This document shows positions 17,167-43,896 of a stretch of DNA of 64,000 nucleotides, piece by piece; position 1 is the first letter of the stretch; every line of letters starts with the position of its first letter. The position numbers were made by a program, and so were the translations under genes. The notes below the pieces were generated by a model. That model was not told the DNA's origin, searched no databases, and saw only the letters and a program-made list of their open reading frames with translations. Origin of the DNA: a phage; NCBI GenBank assembly GCA_012112355.1, contig GCA_012112355.1_3028.1. One strand, written 5' to 3'.

Positions 17167-18491
17167 TTGATTTCCTCTAAATCTTTAGTGTATTCTGTAA
17201 CTACATCAGTAGTTTTCCAATATTCGTTTTCTTCTTTTTTAGCTTTAGCTTCTTCAGCAAGTTTCTTTGCTTCATCAGAAGTCATATGAAAAATATTCAT
17301 TCCAACTAGTTTATCAACATAAGAAGAATACATCTCAATTTTAGAAAGTTCTTCGGTCAGTTCTTTACGAGTTTTACCCTGTACAACAATTTCACCTGAA
17401 ATTACTTTCTTAATGAAATGCGCCTTGGCAAAGGCTAAACGAAATGCTGATTCAGTTTCTTTGATTTTGTTATCAATTCGTTTTTGGACATAAGTTTTAC
17501 GAACTTCAACGAAGTCTTTGATTAAATCAACTACGTTATCGTAAACTTGTAGCTTTCCTTTCTCATTAATAACGGTAATATTTTGGGAACGACGCTCAAT
17601 CAACCCGAAGTCTTTCATAATTTTTGCATGGCGTTCTTCTTCATTATCGCTCAAAGAATATTCTTTACGGAATTTAACTTTAAAGCCAAAGCCATGCTCA
17701 CCACAAGCATCATCCCACGTAATGAAGCCTTTATCTTCAAGTGGGTCTAAGATTTTACTCACATAAGTTTCACGATCATACTTATACGGAATCTCAGTGA
17801 TATGCATTTGAGTTCGTGAAGTAAACTTGTATGTTCCACGAATTTCATATTGCCCATCAATCTCAACGACTTCACCACGAAATTCTGGGAATTCTACCTT
17901 CGGTTTAGTTACTTTCTTTCCTTGAAGAGCTTGCAGTACAGCTTTCTTGACAGAAGAAACACTATGAGGAAGAATGTAAGTTGCATAACCAGTTGCAATA
18001 CCGGAAACACCATTAAGAAGAACAGTAGGAATAATAGGCAAATAGAAAGCAGGCGGAATGTGTTCTTTATCTTGATGTACTGGAGCATATTCAGTATCTT
18101 TATATACGTTATAGAAATTTTTACTTACACGAGCAAAAATATAACGACTAGCTGCTGCCTTTTGGACAGTACGAGAACCGAAGTTTCCTTGACCATCTAA
18201 CAAAGGAAAGTTATTATTCCAAGTATTAGCCATCAAAGCCCCTGCATCTTGTGCAGAGTTTTCACCATGGTGATATCCAAGGTCCGCTACACCACCTGCA
18301 ATAGAAGCAAGTTTGTGAAACTTATCTTTATTTCCTCGTGCCAAATCAAGAGCTCGAGCAATAACAAATCGTTGAACTGGCTTAAATCCATCAATCATAT
18401 TTGGAATAGCACGATTTTCAACCGTGTACATAGCATAAGCCAATGCTTCATTATCAATGATACTTTTTAAATCGCGATTATTCAGTTGCAT
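17163..18491 (-). CDS. 52: DNA topoisomerase II medium subunit gp52 (GyrA-like)
   Basis: 442 aa as T4 gp52; MQLNNRDLKSIIDNEALAYAMYTVENRAIPNMIDGFKPVQRFV. Confidence 0.9.
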   Translation of the reverse strand: MQLNNRDLKSIIDNEALAYAMYTVENRAIPNMIDGFKPVQRFVIARALDLARGNKDKFHKLASIAGGVADLGYHHGENSAQDAGALMANTWNNNFPLLDGQGNFGSRTVQKAAASRYIFARVSKNFYNVYKDTEYAPVHQDKEHIPPAFYLPIIPTVLLNGVSGIATGYATYILPHSVSSVKKAVLQALQGKKVTKPKVEFPEFRGEVVEIDGQYEIRGTYKFTSRTQMHITEIPYKYDRETYVSKILDPLEDKGFITWDDACGEHGFGFKVKFRKEYSLSDNEEERHAKIMKDFGLIERRSQNITVINEKGKLQVYDNVVDLIKDFVEVRKTYVQKRIDNKIKETESAFRLAFAKAHFIKKVISGEIVVQGKTRKELTEELSKIEMYSSYVDKLVGMNIFHMTSDEAKKLAEEAKAKKEENEYWKTTDVVTEYTKDLEEIK

Positions 18492-39228: not shown

Positions 39229-39429
39229 ATGGTACAAAAATTAATGGCACTTGTTAATGCCATAAAAGGTAATAAAAAACGTATAGCTTTTACTATTTCT
39301 GCTATGGTAGGAATTTTACTCTGGAACTTTATTTTATCACCAATTGCAATTGCGCATGGTGTTAATATTCCAGTAGTTACTCTTGATACATTTGTAGATT
39401 TAGCATTTGCTTTAGTTGGGTTGATTTAA
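39229..39429 (+). CDS. hypothetical small membrane protein, the only plus-strand ORF in the minus-strand early region
   Basis: 66 aa, two hydrophobic segments; AAGGAGG seven nt upstream of the ATG; stop overlaps the gene 61 stop on the other strand. Confidence 0.45.
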   Translation: MVQKLMALVNAIKGNKKRIAFTISAMVGILLWNFILSPIAIAHGVNIPVVTLDTFVDLAFALVGLI

Positions 39430-40454
39430 ATCTTAGCATATTTAGATAGCCGCATTTTAGCCATCAACCCCTGGGCAATATTATTTTTCATATATTCCAT
39501 AATTTGTTCAGGGGTTGCACCTTCCTTTCTAATCATATCATTAACATCTTTAGATTTCCAGGGAGATTTATCCCAAAACATAATCCTTTCTCCTGCATCA
39601 ACTAATTTAGTCATTCGTTTGATAGTGTCAGGGTGACGAGGTTCATTATCTAAAACCCACACTCGTCTATCTTTAAATGGAACAACTTCTAGGTCTAATT
39701 GACCACCCGTAATAGCTATACCATTTTCAATAAAAAGTGAATCTATAGGTCCTTCTAGAACATATACATCACCATCTTTAACTCGTTCGACTCCATATAT
39801 TTTTGTTGCCTCAGGATAAGCTTTAATGGTGATATATTTTTGAGGAGCATCTTTCTTTAATGCACGTCCTTGAAAAGACTCAGCTTTTCCATTAGCATTA
39901 TAAATTGGAATAACAAGACGAGGCTCAGAAATTTCCTTTTTGTATGTTCCTGGTGCTATGCTATTAACTAATTTAGGCCATTCGGTTGTAAACCAAAGAT
40001 ATTTCCATTTATCATTTGGAATACAACGAGCTTTTACATATTTTATAATTGGATGGTCTTCCGCCAGTTTATCTAATCTAACACATGACGGAAGAGATTT
40101 AATTATTTTCTTCTCAGGTTGTTTAGGAAGTTCTTTAGGTTTTTCTACTGGACGACTTTTACCTTTTTCTTTTCTTATTTCAAAGATATACTCACGATAT
40201 AAATCGGGTTCAAACTCCTTTAAATATATTCCGATTGGTGCATGATAGTTACAGTTATAACAATGAATATTTCCTTCATTATTATCACCATAATACCATC
40301 CACGAGCTTTATTCTGGTCGGTTTTTGAATCTCCACAAACAGGGCATCTAAACCGCAATTTAAAAGTTGAACTATTATTTACTTGTGTGAATTTAGGTAA
40401 ATGAGTTAATGCACGGTATGCAAACTCATTATCAATCCAAGGTATTGATGACAT
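39426..40454 (-). CDS. 61: DNA primase gp61
   Basis: 342 aa as T4 gp61; N-terminal zinc-binding CPVCGDS...CYNC followed by a TOPRIM region. Confidence 0.9.
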   Translation of the reverse strand: MSSIPWIDNEFAYRALTHLPKFTQVNNSSTFKLRFRCPVCGDSKTDQNKARGWYYGDNNEGNIHCYNCNYHAPIGIYLKEFEPDLYREYIFEIRKEKGKSRPVEKPKELPKQPEKKIIKSLPSCVRLDKLAEDHPIIKYVKARCIPNDKWKYLWFTTEWPKLVNSIAPGTYKKEISEPRLVIPIYNANGKAESFQGRALKKDAPQKYITIKAYPEATKIYGVERVKDGDVYVLEGPIDSLFIENGIAITGGQLDLEVVPFKDRRVWVLDNEPRHPDTIKRMTKLVDAGERIMFWDKSPWKSKDVNDMIRKEGATPEQIMEYMKNNIAQGLMAKMRLSKYAKI

Positions 40455-40456
40455 TT

Positions 40457-40621
40457 TTACTCTTCTTTTTCTTTAGATTCCTCTTTTTTCTTTTTAGGAA
40501 TCTGTTCAGGACCTTTATTTACTACAGCGCCTGACGTTGTTCCAGTAGAGATATTTTCAGGATTACCACCTGAATCTCCAGCGACTATATCTTCTTTGAT
40601 AAATTCTTTATATGTTTTCAT
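40457..40621 (-). CDS. hypothetical small acidic protein (~54 aa), below track cutoff
   Basis: Manual translation MKTYKEFIKEDIVAGDSGGNPENISTGTTSGAVVNKGPEQIPKKKKEESKEKEE; its ATG lies inside repeat copy A. Coordinates approximate. Confidence 0.3.
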   Translation of the reverse strand: MKTYKEFIKEDIVAGDSGGNPENISTGTTSGAVVNKGPEQIPKKKKEESKEKEE

Positions 40622-40667
40622 ATTAACCTCTATTCATAAAAGCATTAAAAATTTGGTCATCAATAGA
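40619..40667 (-). repeat. direct repeat copy A (~49 bp) spanning a stop/start junction
   Basis: catattaa(c)ctctattcataaaagcattaaaaatttggtcatcaataga; one mismatch against the copy at 40977-41025. Confidence 0.6.
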
Positions 40668-40979
40668 TGGCGCAGTAATATTTTCTGCATCATTTAGCAA
40701 ATCATTAATTTCATCAGATAGCATAACACATGTACCTTTATTTCCTGTAATTGTTACTGCACAATTACGAACGTTTTCTTTATCAAATTTTAGGTTAATA
40801 TTTTCGTAGTGAAAATCCTTTAATGCCGAATATATCTTTAAAATGAAATTGTCTTTTACTACAATAAACCCAACCTCACTATTAAAACGCGGTTCATGGA
40901 AACTGTAATAAACCTTTTCATCTATGAAATCGTATGAAATTTTTTCCATTTTTAAATATGAAAATTCAGAACTATACAT
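40623..40979 (-). CDS. hypothetical protein (61.1-like position), paralog of the next ORF
   Basis: 118 aa; ends SIDDQIFNAFMNRG; has one VVKDN-FILKIY unit. Confidence 0.5.
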   Translation of the reverse strand: MYSSEFSYLKMEKISYDFIDEKVYYSFHEPRFNSEVGFIVVKDNFILKIYSALKDFHYENINLKFDKENVRNCAVTITGNKGTCVMLSDEINDLLNDAENITAPSIDDQIFNAFMNRG

Positions 40980-41025
40980 ATTAATCTCTATTCATAAAAG
41001 CATTAAAAATTTGGTCATCAATAGA
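40977..41025 (-). repeat. direct repeat copy B (~49 bp)
   Basis: catattaa(t)ctctattcataaaagcattaaaaatttggtcatcaataga; encodes the last 14 codons of the 210-aa ORF plus TAATATG. Confidence 0.6.
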
Positions 41026-41613
41026 AACATTTACTTTAGGCTGTTCTTCAAACGGTAATTCATATCCACATATTACAATTTTGTGATCGATACCAAAATA
41101 CACAGAAGCAATATTATTAATATTATTTTCAGTGAAATCTAAATCAACATCAATATCTTTTTGACTAACGCTCAAAGGATAATTAATACGAATAATTCGA
41201 TTATCTTTAACAAAGATTCCACCGACATACTCTGTGCTGCGTTTAAAGTTTACACGTTTCCTAAATGAAAAATATTCAGGTTCTTTATGGGCTCGACTCA
41301 TAGGGCTTAAAGTGTATTCCGAATATGAAATATCAAATCCTACACCTTCAATATGAGCCAAAGTGTCATGATTAAACCAATTATAATCGTATGCCAAATC
41401 CATTAAATTGTAATATGTGAAAGGCACCGGATTAACATCATATGTTGTACCTTTAAAATCTGCCCAGGCAACGATTTCGTTATCTTTAACAATTACAAAA
41501 ATTGTGCCAATAAGATATCCACGGTTATTTTCATCAGGCGTTATATTATAACATTGTGCATCAGGAAATTTACCGTATTTAAACGGTGGATTTTTGTGCA
41601 TATAATAAATCAT
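40981..41613 (-). CDS. hypothetical protein (61.2-like position)
   Basis: 210 aa; two VKDN-containing units (FVIVKDNEIVAW, GIFVKDNRIIRINY); ends SIDDQIFNAFMNRD. Confidence 0.5.
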   Translation of the reverse strand: MIYYMHKNPPFKYGKFPDAQCYNITPDENNRGYLIGTIFVIVKDNEIVAWADFKGTTYDVNPVPFTYYNLMDLAYDYNWFNHDTLAHIEGVGFDISYSEYTLSPMSRAHKEPEYFSFRKRVNFKRSTEYVGGIFVKDNRIIRINYPLSVSQKDIDVDLDFTENNINNIASVYFGIDHKIVICGYELPFEEQPKVNVSIDDQIFNAFMNRD

Positions 41614-41614
41614 A

Positions 41615-41908
41615 TTATTCGCCTGTGATTTCGGTTACGATATTTTTGTTATTAAAGTTTTTATCGCAATACAGAACATAATTATACTGCATTACACCAC
41701 CAGACTTAAGTTGTTTTTGCACTTCAGCTTTCATTTCAGGACGATCGCGCTCAACGATATTCATAATATCCGCTTCAATTTGAGTTTCAACTTCAGTCTG
41801 ATCTGCAGTCATAGACCATTCACACAAATCTTTATCATATCCTGCCATAGCAGGCTGAGCAGCACAAGAAGCCAAAGTAAAAATTGTAGCAAAAATAAAT
41901 TTTTTCAT
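41615..41908 (-). CDS. sp: periplasmic Spackle protein Sp
   Basis: 97 aa as T4 Sp; MKKFIFATIFTLASCAAQPAMA signal peptide. Confidence 0.8.
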   Translation of the reverse strand: MKKFIFATIFTLASCAAQPAMAGYDKDLCEWSMTADQTEVETQIEADIMNIVERDRPEMKAEVQKQLKSGGVMQYNYVLYCDKNFNNKNIVTEITGE

Positions 41909-41968
41909 GATAATCTCCTCAGTAGTTTATGTTTATATAGTATCTCAATTTCCAACAAAAGTAAACAG

Positions 41969-42280
41969 TTATTTTAAAATTTCTGCGTAATCACATGTTA
42001 CAAACTGTTTCTCTAGCTTGACGATTTTACGAAAGTATCTTTTGCATTGGCGAATCTGCCTCTTCGTAGGACGTACAGCAAACTTAATAAATTCCACTCG
42101 ACCAAATGGAGGACTTTCTTCTGCTGGAATATCTAACACCAATTCCCACGTATCTGCAATAAGTGCTTTGAATTGAGTATTTTTCCTGACGTTATACGGA
42201 GTAGGTTTAAATAAAACAATATGCATATTATCCTCGGCAATCCACTTCGCACACTTTCTTGTCATCAATGAAAGCTTCAA
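41969..42280 (-). CDS. hypothetical basic protein (61.4-like position)
   Basis: 103-aa ORF between dmd and sp. Confidence 0.45.
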   Translation of the reverse strand: MKLSLMTRKCAKWIAEDNMHIVLFKPTPYNVRKNTQFKALIADTWELVLDIPAEESPPFGRVEFIKFAVRPTKRQIRQCKRYFRKIVKLEKQFVTCDYAEILK

Positions 42281-42410
42281 CTAATGCTTTATTAACTTCA
42301 GCATATTGAGTAGTAGCCCATTGAACGTCATCTTTCATCATTGTGATTTCTTTAGTAAACATACTTTCGTTCTTAAACCACCCCATAAAAACTACTTTTA
42401 CCAATTCCAT
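42228..42410 (-). CDS. dmd: Dmd, discriminator of mRNA degradation (antitoxin against RnlA/LsoA)
   Basis: 60 aa, MELVKVVFMGWFKNESMFTKEITMMKDDVQWATTQYAEVNKALVEAFIDDKKVCEVDCRG; matches T4 Dmd. Confidence 0.85.
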   Translation of the reverse strand: MELVKVVFMGWFKNESMFTKEITMMKDDVQWATTQYAEVNKALVEAFIDDKKVCEVDCRG

Positions 42411-42439
42411 AACAATCTCCTCATTTAACCAACAAGACT

Positions 42440-42469
42440 ACTATACCATAGTCTTGTCAGCTTGTAAAC
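42440..42469 (-). promoter_or_regulatory. T4-type early promoter upstream of dmd
   Basis: GTTTAC-aagctgacaagactatgg-TATAGT on the minus strand. Confidence 0.45.
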
Positions 42470-43896
42470 TAAAATTTTAATTCATTCGCCAAAGCATCTA
42501 ACTGAGCTCGAGTGGATTCATTTCTTTGATAGCGATTCTGCTCAGCCTGAATCTGTTGTGAACCTGCTACTTCACTCACTTCAGTTGGAGTAGAATCTTG
42601 TTCAATTTCTACCCATTTTTGGTTTCCTTTTTGAACACCCATCAAAAACTTATTCCACTTATTCTTATCACCATATCGTGATTTGATTTGCTTAATGAGT
42701 TGCTGTTCAGCAGCTGCTAGCTCCTCGGTTTCAATGACCGCAAGCATAAAATCAGCTGTTGCTGGAAGACCAGCAGATTCTGCGATATCACTCATGTTAA
42801 CATCAGAAGAGTCCCAAGCTTGTTTACCGACCTGTGCTGCAGTCCAAAGAACAGTTTCGGTTTCAACAGCAAGAGCACGCAATTCCTCTGCAATAGCTTT
42901 AACAGTTGCGTAACTATTTTCTGAATAAACTCTAATGCGGCAAGATTTACAAATACCTAGATAGTCGACAATAATGATTGTTGGAACAAAATTCTTTTTG
43001 AGCTTCAATTCATTCAAGAGAGACCTGAATGTGTTAGCATCTGCCCCACCAGTAGGGTACTGTTTAACAATTAAACGACCGAGAGTAGATTTCTCACGCC
43101 ATTTTTCCATTTTTCCTTTATACTCAGCGTAAGAAATATGCCCATCATCAATGTCATCAAGAGAAACATCGAGCATATTAGCGTCAATACGTTTAGCACA
43201 GACTTCTTCTGCCATTTCCATGGAGATATAAAGAACGTTATGTCCAAGCTGTAAATAATCTGCTGCTAATGAACACAATCCTAATGATTTACCAACGTTA
43301 ACGCCAGCCATTAAAACGTTCAGTGTTCCAGTTTCAGCTCCGCCTTTAGTAATTTTGTTTAGAATTCTGAGTTTAAATGGAACCTTACGAGCTTTATTCA
43401 TATAAGATAGCCAACGTGCTTCATAGTCATCCATCCAATCATGGCCAACGTAGCTATCAAATGAAATTGATAATGCTTGTCGCATGATGTCAGGAATAGC
43501 ACCAACATCCGGCATTTTCTTATTTCGTTTTTCCGGAGGAAGCTCAGCATTAGTTTGAATTTCGATTATTTTAGACGTAGCATTAAACATCGCCCTTTGC
43601 TGAACATATTTTTCTGTTTCTTTTACTAACCAGCTGTGGTCTTCCGGAGAATCAGCCAGTTTTGAAATAAGTGTTTTTACACCAGAATATTCTGTTTCAG
43701 TAAATGAACTATTTTCTAATGCAACATTTAACGCATTAATAGATGGAACGCTATGATACTCATTAACATGAGATTTAATTAATTTGAATGTATTTTTAGC
43801 TGGACCACTTTCAAAATATTCTGAATCCATATATGGCCAAACTTTTGAAAAATAAGCTTGATCAAATATGAGATGAGAAAGAATAATTTCTACCAC
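42469..43896 (-). CDS. 41: replicative DNA helicase gp41 (DnaB-like)
   Basis: 475 aa as T4 gp41; MVEIILSHLIFDQAYFSKVWPYMDSEYF; Walker A GVNVGKS. Confidence 0.9.
   Translation of the reverse strand: MVEIILSHLIFDQAYFSKVWPYMDSEYFESGPAKNTFKLIKSHVNEYHSVPSINALNVALENSSFTETEYSGVKTLISKLADSPEDHSWLVKETEKYVQQRAMFNATSKIIEIQTNAELPPEKRNKKMPDVGAIPDIMRQALSISFDSYVGHDWMDDYEARWLSYMNKARKVPFKLRILNKITKGGAETGTLNVLMAGVNVGKSLGLCSLAADYLQLGHNVLYISMEMAEEVCAKRIDANMLDVSLDDIDDGHISYAEYKGKMEKWREKSTLGRLIVKQYPTGGADANTFRSLLNELKLKKNFVPTIIIVDYLGICKSCRIRVYSENSYATVKAIAEELRALAVETETVLWTAAQVGKQAWDSSDVNMSDIAESAGLPATADFMLAVIETEELAAAEQQLIKQIKSRYGDKNKWNKFLMGVQKGNQKWVEIEQDSTPTEVSEVAGSQQIQAEQNRYQRNESTRAQLDALANELKF

Follow-up and report, generated by a model that had tools for sequence, protein, structure and literature searches.

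Introduction

The closest described relative of the locus analyzed here is AdfA, the product of T4 gene 61.2 (LeRoux et al., 2022, cited after PMC11257639 and PMC11825919). In PMC11257639, AdfA is reported to block the toxin DarT1, apparently through interaction with the toxin, and alleles with His at position 164 (RB69 numbering) are described as active and alleles with Arg, as in RB69, as inactive against DarT1. The survey in the same source treats phage T2 as lacking an adfA homolog. T2 contains only a half-size gene, called h118 in the following, which is the same gene as T2 gp61.2, RB32ORF033c and phrog_4122. A second described system is the modular shuffling of T4-type phages mediated by PeSLs (Arbiol et al., 2010, PMC2839356; Comeau et al., 2014, PMC4122927), in which modules are exchanged at conserved short cassettes (PMC2839356). 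These cassettes are intergenic and combine an early promoter with a terminator stem-loop. Moreover, T4 rearranges the same anti-TA island by recombination between short homologies, as described for the amplification of dmd-tifA, where the copy number of an anti-toxin gene changes through the repeats on either side of it; these events are of laboratory origin and use incidental microhomologies of 6-10 bp (Srikant, Guegler and Laub, 2022, PMC9391042).

Here we analyze a stretch of 64,000 nucleotides of phage DNA (the window), the source of which is a Tequatrovirus, i.e., a T4-like phage. The window contains a full-length AdfA family member of 210 aa (459 bits), which lies between sp and 61.1, as does the AdfA described in the sources above, and has the same C-terminal tail, and it contains next to it h118, which matches the C-terminal half of the AdfA model. 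It differs from the described system in that the window adfA allele encodes Asn, instead of the reported His or Arg, at the specificity position, and in that h118 is without the N-terminal half. In T2, h118 directly follows sp, whereas adfA precedes it in the window, where a repeat of 49 nt is then present twice. Similar to a PeSL, this short conserved repeat lies beside non-essential genes of a variable region, and insertions, deletions and replacements between close relatives have their boundaries there; unlike a PeSL, it consists of a coding 3' end, a ribosome-binding site and a start codon. With the dmd-tifA events it shares the island, but it is 49 bp long and conserved, it represents standing variation across natural isolates, and no amplification was seen.

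Organization of the Island

The initial annotation had placed the tandem genes in an accessory and anti-defence island between primase 61 and helicase 41. This placement is borne out, with AdfA itself encoded by the 210-aa gene and with spackle, a DUF7279 protein and Dmd beside it (Table 1).

Table 1. Genes and repeat copies of the island, in coordinates of the window.
Feature	Position	Strand	Remarks
gene 61, DNA primase	39426..40454	(-)	conserved flank of island
gene 61.1, 54 aa, phrog_1823	40457..40621	(-)	downstream of repeat copy 1
repeat copy 1	40619..40667	(-)	last 14 codons of h118 (SIDDQIFNAFMNRG), TAA, T, ATG of 61.1
h118, 118 aa, phrog_4122	40623..40979	(-)	single-domain paralog of AdfA C-terminal half
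repeat copy 2	40977..41025	(-)	last 14 codons of adfA (SIDDQIFNAFMNRD), TAA, T, ATG of h118
adfA (T4 gene 61.2, anti-DarT factor A), 210 aa	40981..41613	(-)	Pfam PF23813
sp (61.3, spackle)	41615..41908	(-)	stop joined to adfA start as TAA-T-ATG
61.4 homolog	41969..42280	(-)	Pfam DUF7279; mechanical ORF, TTG start, 103 aa
dmd	42228..42410	(-)	neighbour of adfA in the island
gene 41, replicative helicase	42469..43896	(-)	conserved flank of island

Gene 61.4 carries the name TifA in PMC9391042. Its mechanical ORF overlaps dmd, and the true start is probably the ATG at 42226, 1 nt past the dmd stop, which would give a protein of 85 aa; this start was derived from the 85-aa T4 gene and from the translation. 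The layout TAA-N-ATG repeats along the operon, at sp-adfA, adfA-h118, h118-61.1 and probably dmd-61.4 (window 42224-42230 and 41611-41617), a recurrence that suggests coupled translation of the entire island. The last eight codons of sp occur in two alleles, …IVTEITGE and …IIAEVVGE (window 41611-41650; sp 3' ends in loci L001-L009), which among tequatrovirus loci having adfA co-vary with the N-terminal type of adfA, MIYYMHKN vs MLYQMHKC, and also with the type of the sp/adfA junction, TAATATG vs an overlapping TAATG. The adfA allele of the window has a Mosigvirus-like N-terminus, and since the window contains a Mosigvirus-like sp/adfA pair, the mosaic block crosses the sp/adfA boundary. In a distant T4-like phage represented by the metagenomic contig ERZ27245996:k123_278436, a gene for a 206-aa HNH endonuclease (L035, 371-991) lies in the same island between helicase 41 and the dmd region; it may encode a free-standing homing endonuclease and constitute another route of exchange at the locus.

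AdfA and Its Half-Size Paralog

The 210-aa protein matches the Pfam family AdfA with an E-value of 2e-138 and 459.1 bits (cutoff 27), and its residues 1-209 align to profile positions 1-210, as is the case for a full-length member. Against the same profile and cutoff h118 reaches 31.9 bits and covers positions 113-211 only, i.e., the C-terminal half. Using BLASTP, h118 aligns to AdfA residues 111-209 with 37% identity over 105 aa (E 2e-10), and hhalign assigns its match to the AdfA C-half a probability of 98%. The similarity stays when the tails are removed (Smith-Waterman p ~1.4e-4; 1/2000 shuffles reach the score), and the two proteins form separate PHROG families, each of which matches the other. 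BLASTP, Pfam, hhalign and the tail-less Smith-Waterman comparison therefore all agree that the two upstream proteins are, as initially proposed, paralogs beyond their common tail. As judged from these matches, h118 is a partial-architecture member of the AdfA family and is newly recognised as a half-AdfA paralog. The gene is annotated as 61.2 in T2 and as RB32ORF033c in RB32-like phages, its product is 97.5% identical to the T2 copy at the amino-acid level, and it is an old gene, because orthologs with 45-50% amino-acid identity exist in Gaprivervirus.

The initial annotation had further described the two proteins as having one versus two repeat units. An internal duplication of AdfA is only weakly indicated, as the N-half and the C-half are similar with a Smith-Waterman p of ~0.02 and hhalign aligns only 11 columns of the two halves, the VKDN hairpin, with a probability of 13%. 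The AlphaFold2 model of AdfA, with a mean pLDDT of only 66, comprises two five-strand-plus-helix units of the same order in both halves, followed by a tail helix. The model of h118, a confident one (pLDDT 80), comprises five β-strands, a helix, a strand, a helix, a low-confidence linker and a C-terminal tail helix.

Where RB69 AdfA has residue 164, the AdfA of the window has Asn167 (NNINNIAS; 41113-41115), T4 AdfA has His and that of Mosigvirus SF has Arg, and h118 has Asn72 at the aligned position. Asn is also found in the Sf21 and P0006 alleles and represents a third allele at this position, which the cited publications on AdfA do not discuss. Both AdfA and h118 of the window may act as inhibitors of DarT-type toxins, and h118 could be a single-domain toxin inhibitor of different specificity.

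A 49-nt Repeat at Two Stop/Start Junctions

The initial annotation had reported a direct repeat of ~49 bp, with one base different between its copies, at the stop/start junctions of the two genes and had noted that their products end alike. A repeat search of the window returned both copies at exactly the coordinates first noted; they are identical at 48/49 positions (98%), and the C-terminal ends of the 118-aa and the 210-aa product, each followed by TAA-T-ATG, agree accordingly (Table 1). The single difference is C/T on the + strand, corresponding to G/A on the coding strand, and the copies are spaced 358 nt apart. Across the whole 64-kb window just these two copies exist at ≤3 mismatches, and none was found in 100 shuffles. 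On the coding strand each copy reads TCTATTGATGACCAAATTTTTAATGCTTTTATGAATAGAG(G/A)TTAATATG and encodes SIDDQIFNAFMNR(G/D), after which come the stop TAA, a single T and the start ATG of the following gene. Copy 1 contains a GAGG Shine-Dalgarno sequence 5 nt ahead of the 61.1 ATG; in copy 2 the base change converts GGT to GAT and thereby GAGG to GAGA. The homology ends abruptly at both edges of the 49 nt, and the aligned codons upstream of the tail are 43% identical. The tandem junction is not an assembly artefact, because ~158 independent phage records have the same junction.

Haplotypes and Mosaic Breakpoints in Public Phages

The adfA-h118 tandem was recovered from these ~158 records by a junction query at ≥80% coverage. 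Records with h118 number ~299 in total and tail-bearing records ~478, which leaves ~141 with h118 only (299 minus 158), as in T2, and ~179 with adfA only (478 minus 299), as in T4; at least 29 records, including RB3, RB5-7, RB9-10, Nami and others, contain neither gene. All of these counts are approximate, as some GenBank/RefSeq duplicates are included. As judged from the CDS coordinates of T4 and teqhad, the tandem and the adfA-only haplotype differ by exactly 358 bp, i.e., one repeat period: T4 adfA (624-1250) adjoins 61.1, teqhad has h118 (1524-1880) inserted between the two genes, and the single-copy form has one tail, which is of the copy-1 type. The adfA-only state could be ancestral or a deletion product. 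Three allele lineages of adfA differ by 6-18%, with T4/teqhad separated from either of the others by 13-18%, and each lineage occurs with and without h118 at ~98% identity (T4/teqhad, L026/wV7 and L025/L032).

Pairwise comparisons reveal mosaicism at the same places. Between the window and Sf21, 61.1 is 96.9%, the h118 body 82.4%, repeat copy 1 95.9%, repeat copy 2 93.9% and adfA 99.3-99.7% identical. Between the window and teqhad, the values are 98.1% for 61.1, 96.8% for the h118 body, 100% for both repeats, 89% for the adfA 3' half and 67% for the 5' half. In both comparisons the jumps in divergence sit at the repeats. Natural haplotypes one 358-bp period apart and divergence breakpoints at the repeats support the module gain or loss for which the repeat had initially been considered a ready substrate.

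The T2-type (sp-h118) and the RB7-type (sp-61.1) junctions have only ~15 nt (TAGAGGYTARTATG) in common with the repeat and are not simple crossover products of two 49-nt copies; simple microhomology models did not reproduce the observed sequences at these junctions either. No genuine natural amplification of the 358-bp unit was found among public phage records. An apparently duplicated h118 with four repeat copies in Yersinia phage phiD1 (L038, NC_027353.1, about 18,268-18,360) is a misassembly in the RefSeq record, as the join contains Ns and the Illumina TruSeq adapter GATCGGNNGANCNNANNTNTGAACTNNAG, present there as GATCGGAAGAGC..CTGAACTCCAG.

A Proposed Recombination Joint for AdfA-Family Cassettes

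We consider it likely, with a probability of roughly 0.75, that the 49-nt patch is a recombination joint of AdfA-family cassettes in the anti-toxin island of T-even phages. The island holds two tandem members of the family, the full-length adfA and the half-size h118, and in most members the tail is followed by a coupling junction consisting of GAGG, 5 nt containing TAA, and the ATG of the next gene. Constraints at the protein level and on the ribosome-binding site would hold this segment constant, and each cassette would thereby have a 3' border of homologous DNA, which T-even recombination can use. Through crossover or gene conversion in the tail, the two copies would differ little at synonymous sites, phages infecting the same cell would exchange the bodies of their cassettes, and the 358-bp h118 unit would be gained or lost. 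Recombination inside the 49-nt patch may be the causal mechanism. The jumps in divergence at the repeats are what recombination in a conserved joint yields, in accord with the short-homology rearrangements of this island in T4 (PMC9391042) and with the module shuffling at short cassettes in T4-type phages (PMC2839356); breakpoints at a conserved patch are, however, expected from any homologous recombination and would arise without a special role of the patch. Singer et al. (1982) reportedly found that efficient recombination in T4 takes roughly 50 bp of homology, which is the size of the 49-nt repeat.

The shared tail and junction are the known modular shuffling of T-even phages in a new form. 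The repeat is not a PeSL cassette, as there is neither a Sigma-70-like early promoter nor a terminator stem-loop at the repeats: a scan of 40300-42600 gave no terminator-like site, neither repeat is overlapped by a strong promoter-like site on the minus strand, and the best promoter match is located at 42468-42440, upstream of dmd.

If the joint acts as proposed, it represents a concrete, sequence-defined route by which the anti-toxin repertoire of T-even phages is reshuffled, and a measurable instability, i.e., loss of the 358 bp, would be predicted for research or therapy phages that have the tandem. Being a half-size paralog of AdfA, h118, which is present in ~300 phage records including T2, is a candidate counter-defence factor. 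Its identity bears on published claims that T2 is without adfA and on the failure of adfA presence to track DarTG1 resistance.

The C-Terminal Tail and Protein-Level Selection

The tail is at the same time a signature of the protein family. Its consensus, DDQIFNAFM(N/K)(R/K)(G/D), ends every known member and is the most conserved block of AdfA family alignments; no other part of the family is as constrained as this C-terminal motif of 12-14 residues. Its amino acids are the same on at least three types of body from four genera of the Tevenvirinae, i.e., on AdfA (208-216 aa; Tequatrovirus and Mosigvirus), on single-domain proteins of 118-125 aa (h118 in Tequatrovirus, g037 in Gaprivervirus and the metagenomic P0023 and P0025), and on bodies of 122-146 aa in Dhakavirus and Gaprivervirus, which align to the other bodies at the tail only. 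All family members found sit directly after sp (61.3) and upstream of 61.1 and the primase. The family appears confined to T4-like phages, because searching 1.84 billion representative proteins with a profile gave no wider family but only seven matches: six belong to the family and come from T4-like phages, and the seventh is the chimeric or truncated P0026. The initial annotation had not noted that the coding part of the repeat is also a family-wide conserved protein motif, and the repeat is therefore more than a DNA duplication.

The codons of the tail differ among lineages, with GAT/GAC, CAA/CAG, GCT/GCC, TTT/TTC, AAT/AAC, AGA/CGA and the stop TAA/TGA all occurring, and the same peptide is encoded elsewhere with 3 to 10 mostly synonymous nucleotide differences over 49 nt. 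An invariant peptide with varying codons indicates strong selection at the protein level while synonymous sites are free. In structure predictions the tail is a short helix on a flexible linker, and this tethered helix might bind a common partner or mediate oligomerisation. A more far-reaching and rather speculative reading, to which we give only a minor share of our confidence, is that the tail peptide DDQIFNAFMNRG is a portable docking helix and its DNA the joint for the exchange of bodies, that the locus accepts plug-in anti-defence cassettes, and that h118 is active. Such a helix may let the two-domain AdfA, the single-domain h118-type proteins and the 122-146-aa Dhaka/Gapriver bodies engage one partner, for example a surface conserved among DarT-like toxins or a component of the replisome; if this were true, h118, including T2 gp61.2, would be an unrecognised active anti-toxin factor. 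The amphipathicity of the tail is ordinary, as 1470/5000 shuffles reach as high a hydrophobic moment. A role of the tail as sliding-clamp-binding motif found no support, since its hydrophobic spacing is unlike that of the C-termini of the presumed gp43 (…ASLDFLFG) and gp55, both assigned in this phage from ORF length and gene order.

Selection on the protein could also account for the repeat without any exchange of DNA, with an essential C-terminal peptide retained in both genes and codon bias giving rise to the nucleotide identity. The conservation of the tail block, and the invariance of the peptide across AdfA, h118, the 122-146-aa Dhaka/Gapriver proteins, P0023 and P0025, are as this explanation predicts. 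However, all 13/13 shared tail codons are identical between adfA and h118 in the window, which has a probability of P = 2.7e-4 given the codon usage of the window, whereas outside the tail the same codon is used at only 9/27 positions with identical residues. This excess of codon identity points to exchange at the DNA level and not to protein selection alone. Since, furthermore, the coding sequences of this peptide differ at many synonymous sites in other lineages and the divergence jumps coincide with the repeats, we regard protein selection as the only cause as unlikely.

In line with a recombination joint used by different cassettes, variants of the tail are found on different bodies: wV7-type phages have the GACGAT variant on adfA, Sf21 has it on h119, and the GATGAC variant was seen on both gene bodies elsewhere. 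Homogenisation is incomplete, because the upstream copy has at least one mismatch in every tandem genome examined.

The Gapriverviruses VR25 (L023, 1359-2157) and DCP80 (L024, 1362-2157) contain a tandem pair of their own in the same slot, composed of a 144-145-aa protein and a following 119-aa h118 homolog, both ending in DDQIFNAFMKR(D/G) and TAATATG. Both genes of the Gaprivervirus tandem encode FMKR, vs FMNR in both Tequatrovirus genes, a pattern to which compositional drift may contribute. Comparing the Gapriver/Dhaka 145-aa body with the AdfA N-half gave p-values of 0.03-0.15 and an hhalign alignment of the tail only; a K-P-AQ-Y motif is suggestive, and a Foldseek search of this body against BFVD gave an E-value of 2.6e-4 with poor superposition.

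Junction Translation and RNA Structure

The repeat might instead be kept as an RNA element, in which a hairpin pairs its start (UCUAUUGAUGA) with its end (UUAUGAAUAGAGG), masks the downstream Shine-Dalgarno sequence and enforces translational coupling. Such a hairpin is present in the minimum-free-energy folds of 3/4 junctions (it is absent at T4 adfA-61.1), the TAA-T-ATG layout is typical of coupling, and GAGG is altered in the upstream copy at 12/12 tandem loci, which hints that the strength of h118 initiation matters. Folding z-scores of -0.2 to -1.4 are, however, no different from those of shuffles, and Mosigvirus and Dhakavirus tails change one stem pair on both sides without restoring the pairing (U-A to A·C or U·C). 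As the hairpin performs no better than shuffles, shows no compensatory changes, and would moreover leave the mosaicism of the cassettes unexplained, it was rejected and we hold it for quite improbable.

The alteration of GAGG follows the identity of the downstream gene. In the copy preceding an h118-type gene it reads AGAGAT (…RD) or AAAGGT (…NKG), the window having GAGA at 40983-40986; the loci compared are 10 of Tequatrovirus and 2 of Gaprivervirus (L004, L005, L009, L021, L023, L024, L029-L033 and the window). AGAGGT (…NRG) is kept in every copy preceding 61.1 and in every adfA directly followed by 61.1. At least two independent mutations underlie the changes ahead of the h118-type gene, and these may weaken the translation of h118 or reduce the homology of the repeat.

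Origin of the Half-Size Gene

A recent tandem duplication, by which h118 would have arisen from the adfA 3' half in this lineage with the 49 nt as undiverged remnant, would fit the alignment of h118 to the AdfA C-terminal half and the ability of a 47-bp deletion in phage CT01 to create a free-standing C-terminal ORF of similar extent, but it is highly improbable, as nucleotide identity is 98% in the tail and drops sharply to 43% in the bodies, the diverged Gaprivervirus orthologs mark h118 as an old gene, h118 stands alone in T2-type phages, and tests for an identity that fades gradually with distance from the tail and for a restriction of h118 to one recent clade found neither.

In the Shigella phage CT01 (L034, OK018184.1, 18144-18706) this internal deletion leaves adfA in two parts, an N-fragment of 72 aa and an ORF of 101 aa, the latter running from MSRAHKEPEYF… to the tail, and a second deletion of 15 bp is located just ahead of the tail. 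The 101-aa ORF has nearly the same extent as the AdfA region that resembles h118, and CT01 thereby provides a natural illustration of a possible origin of a half-AdfA gene.
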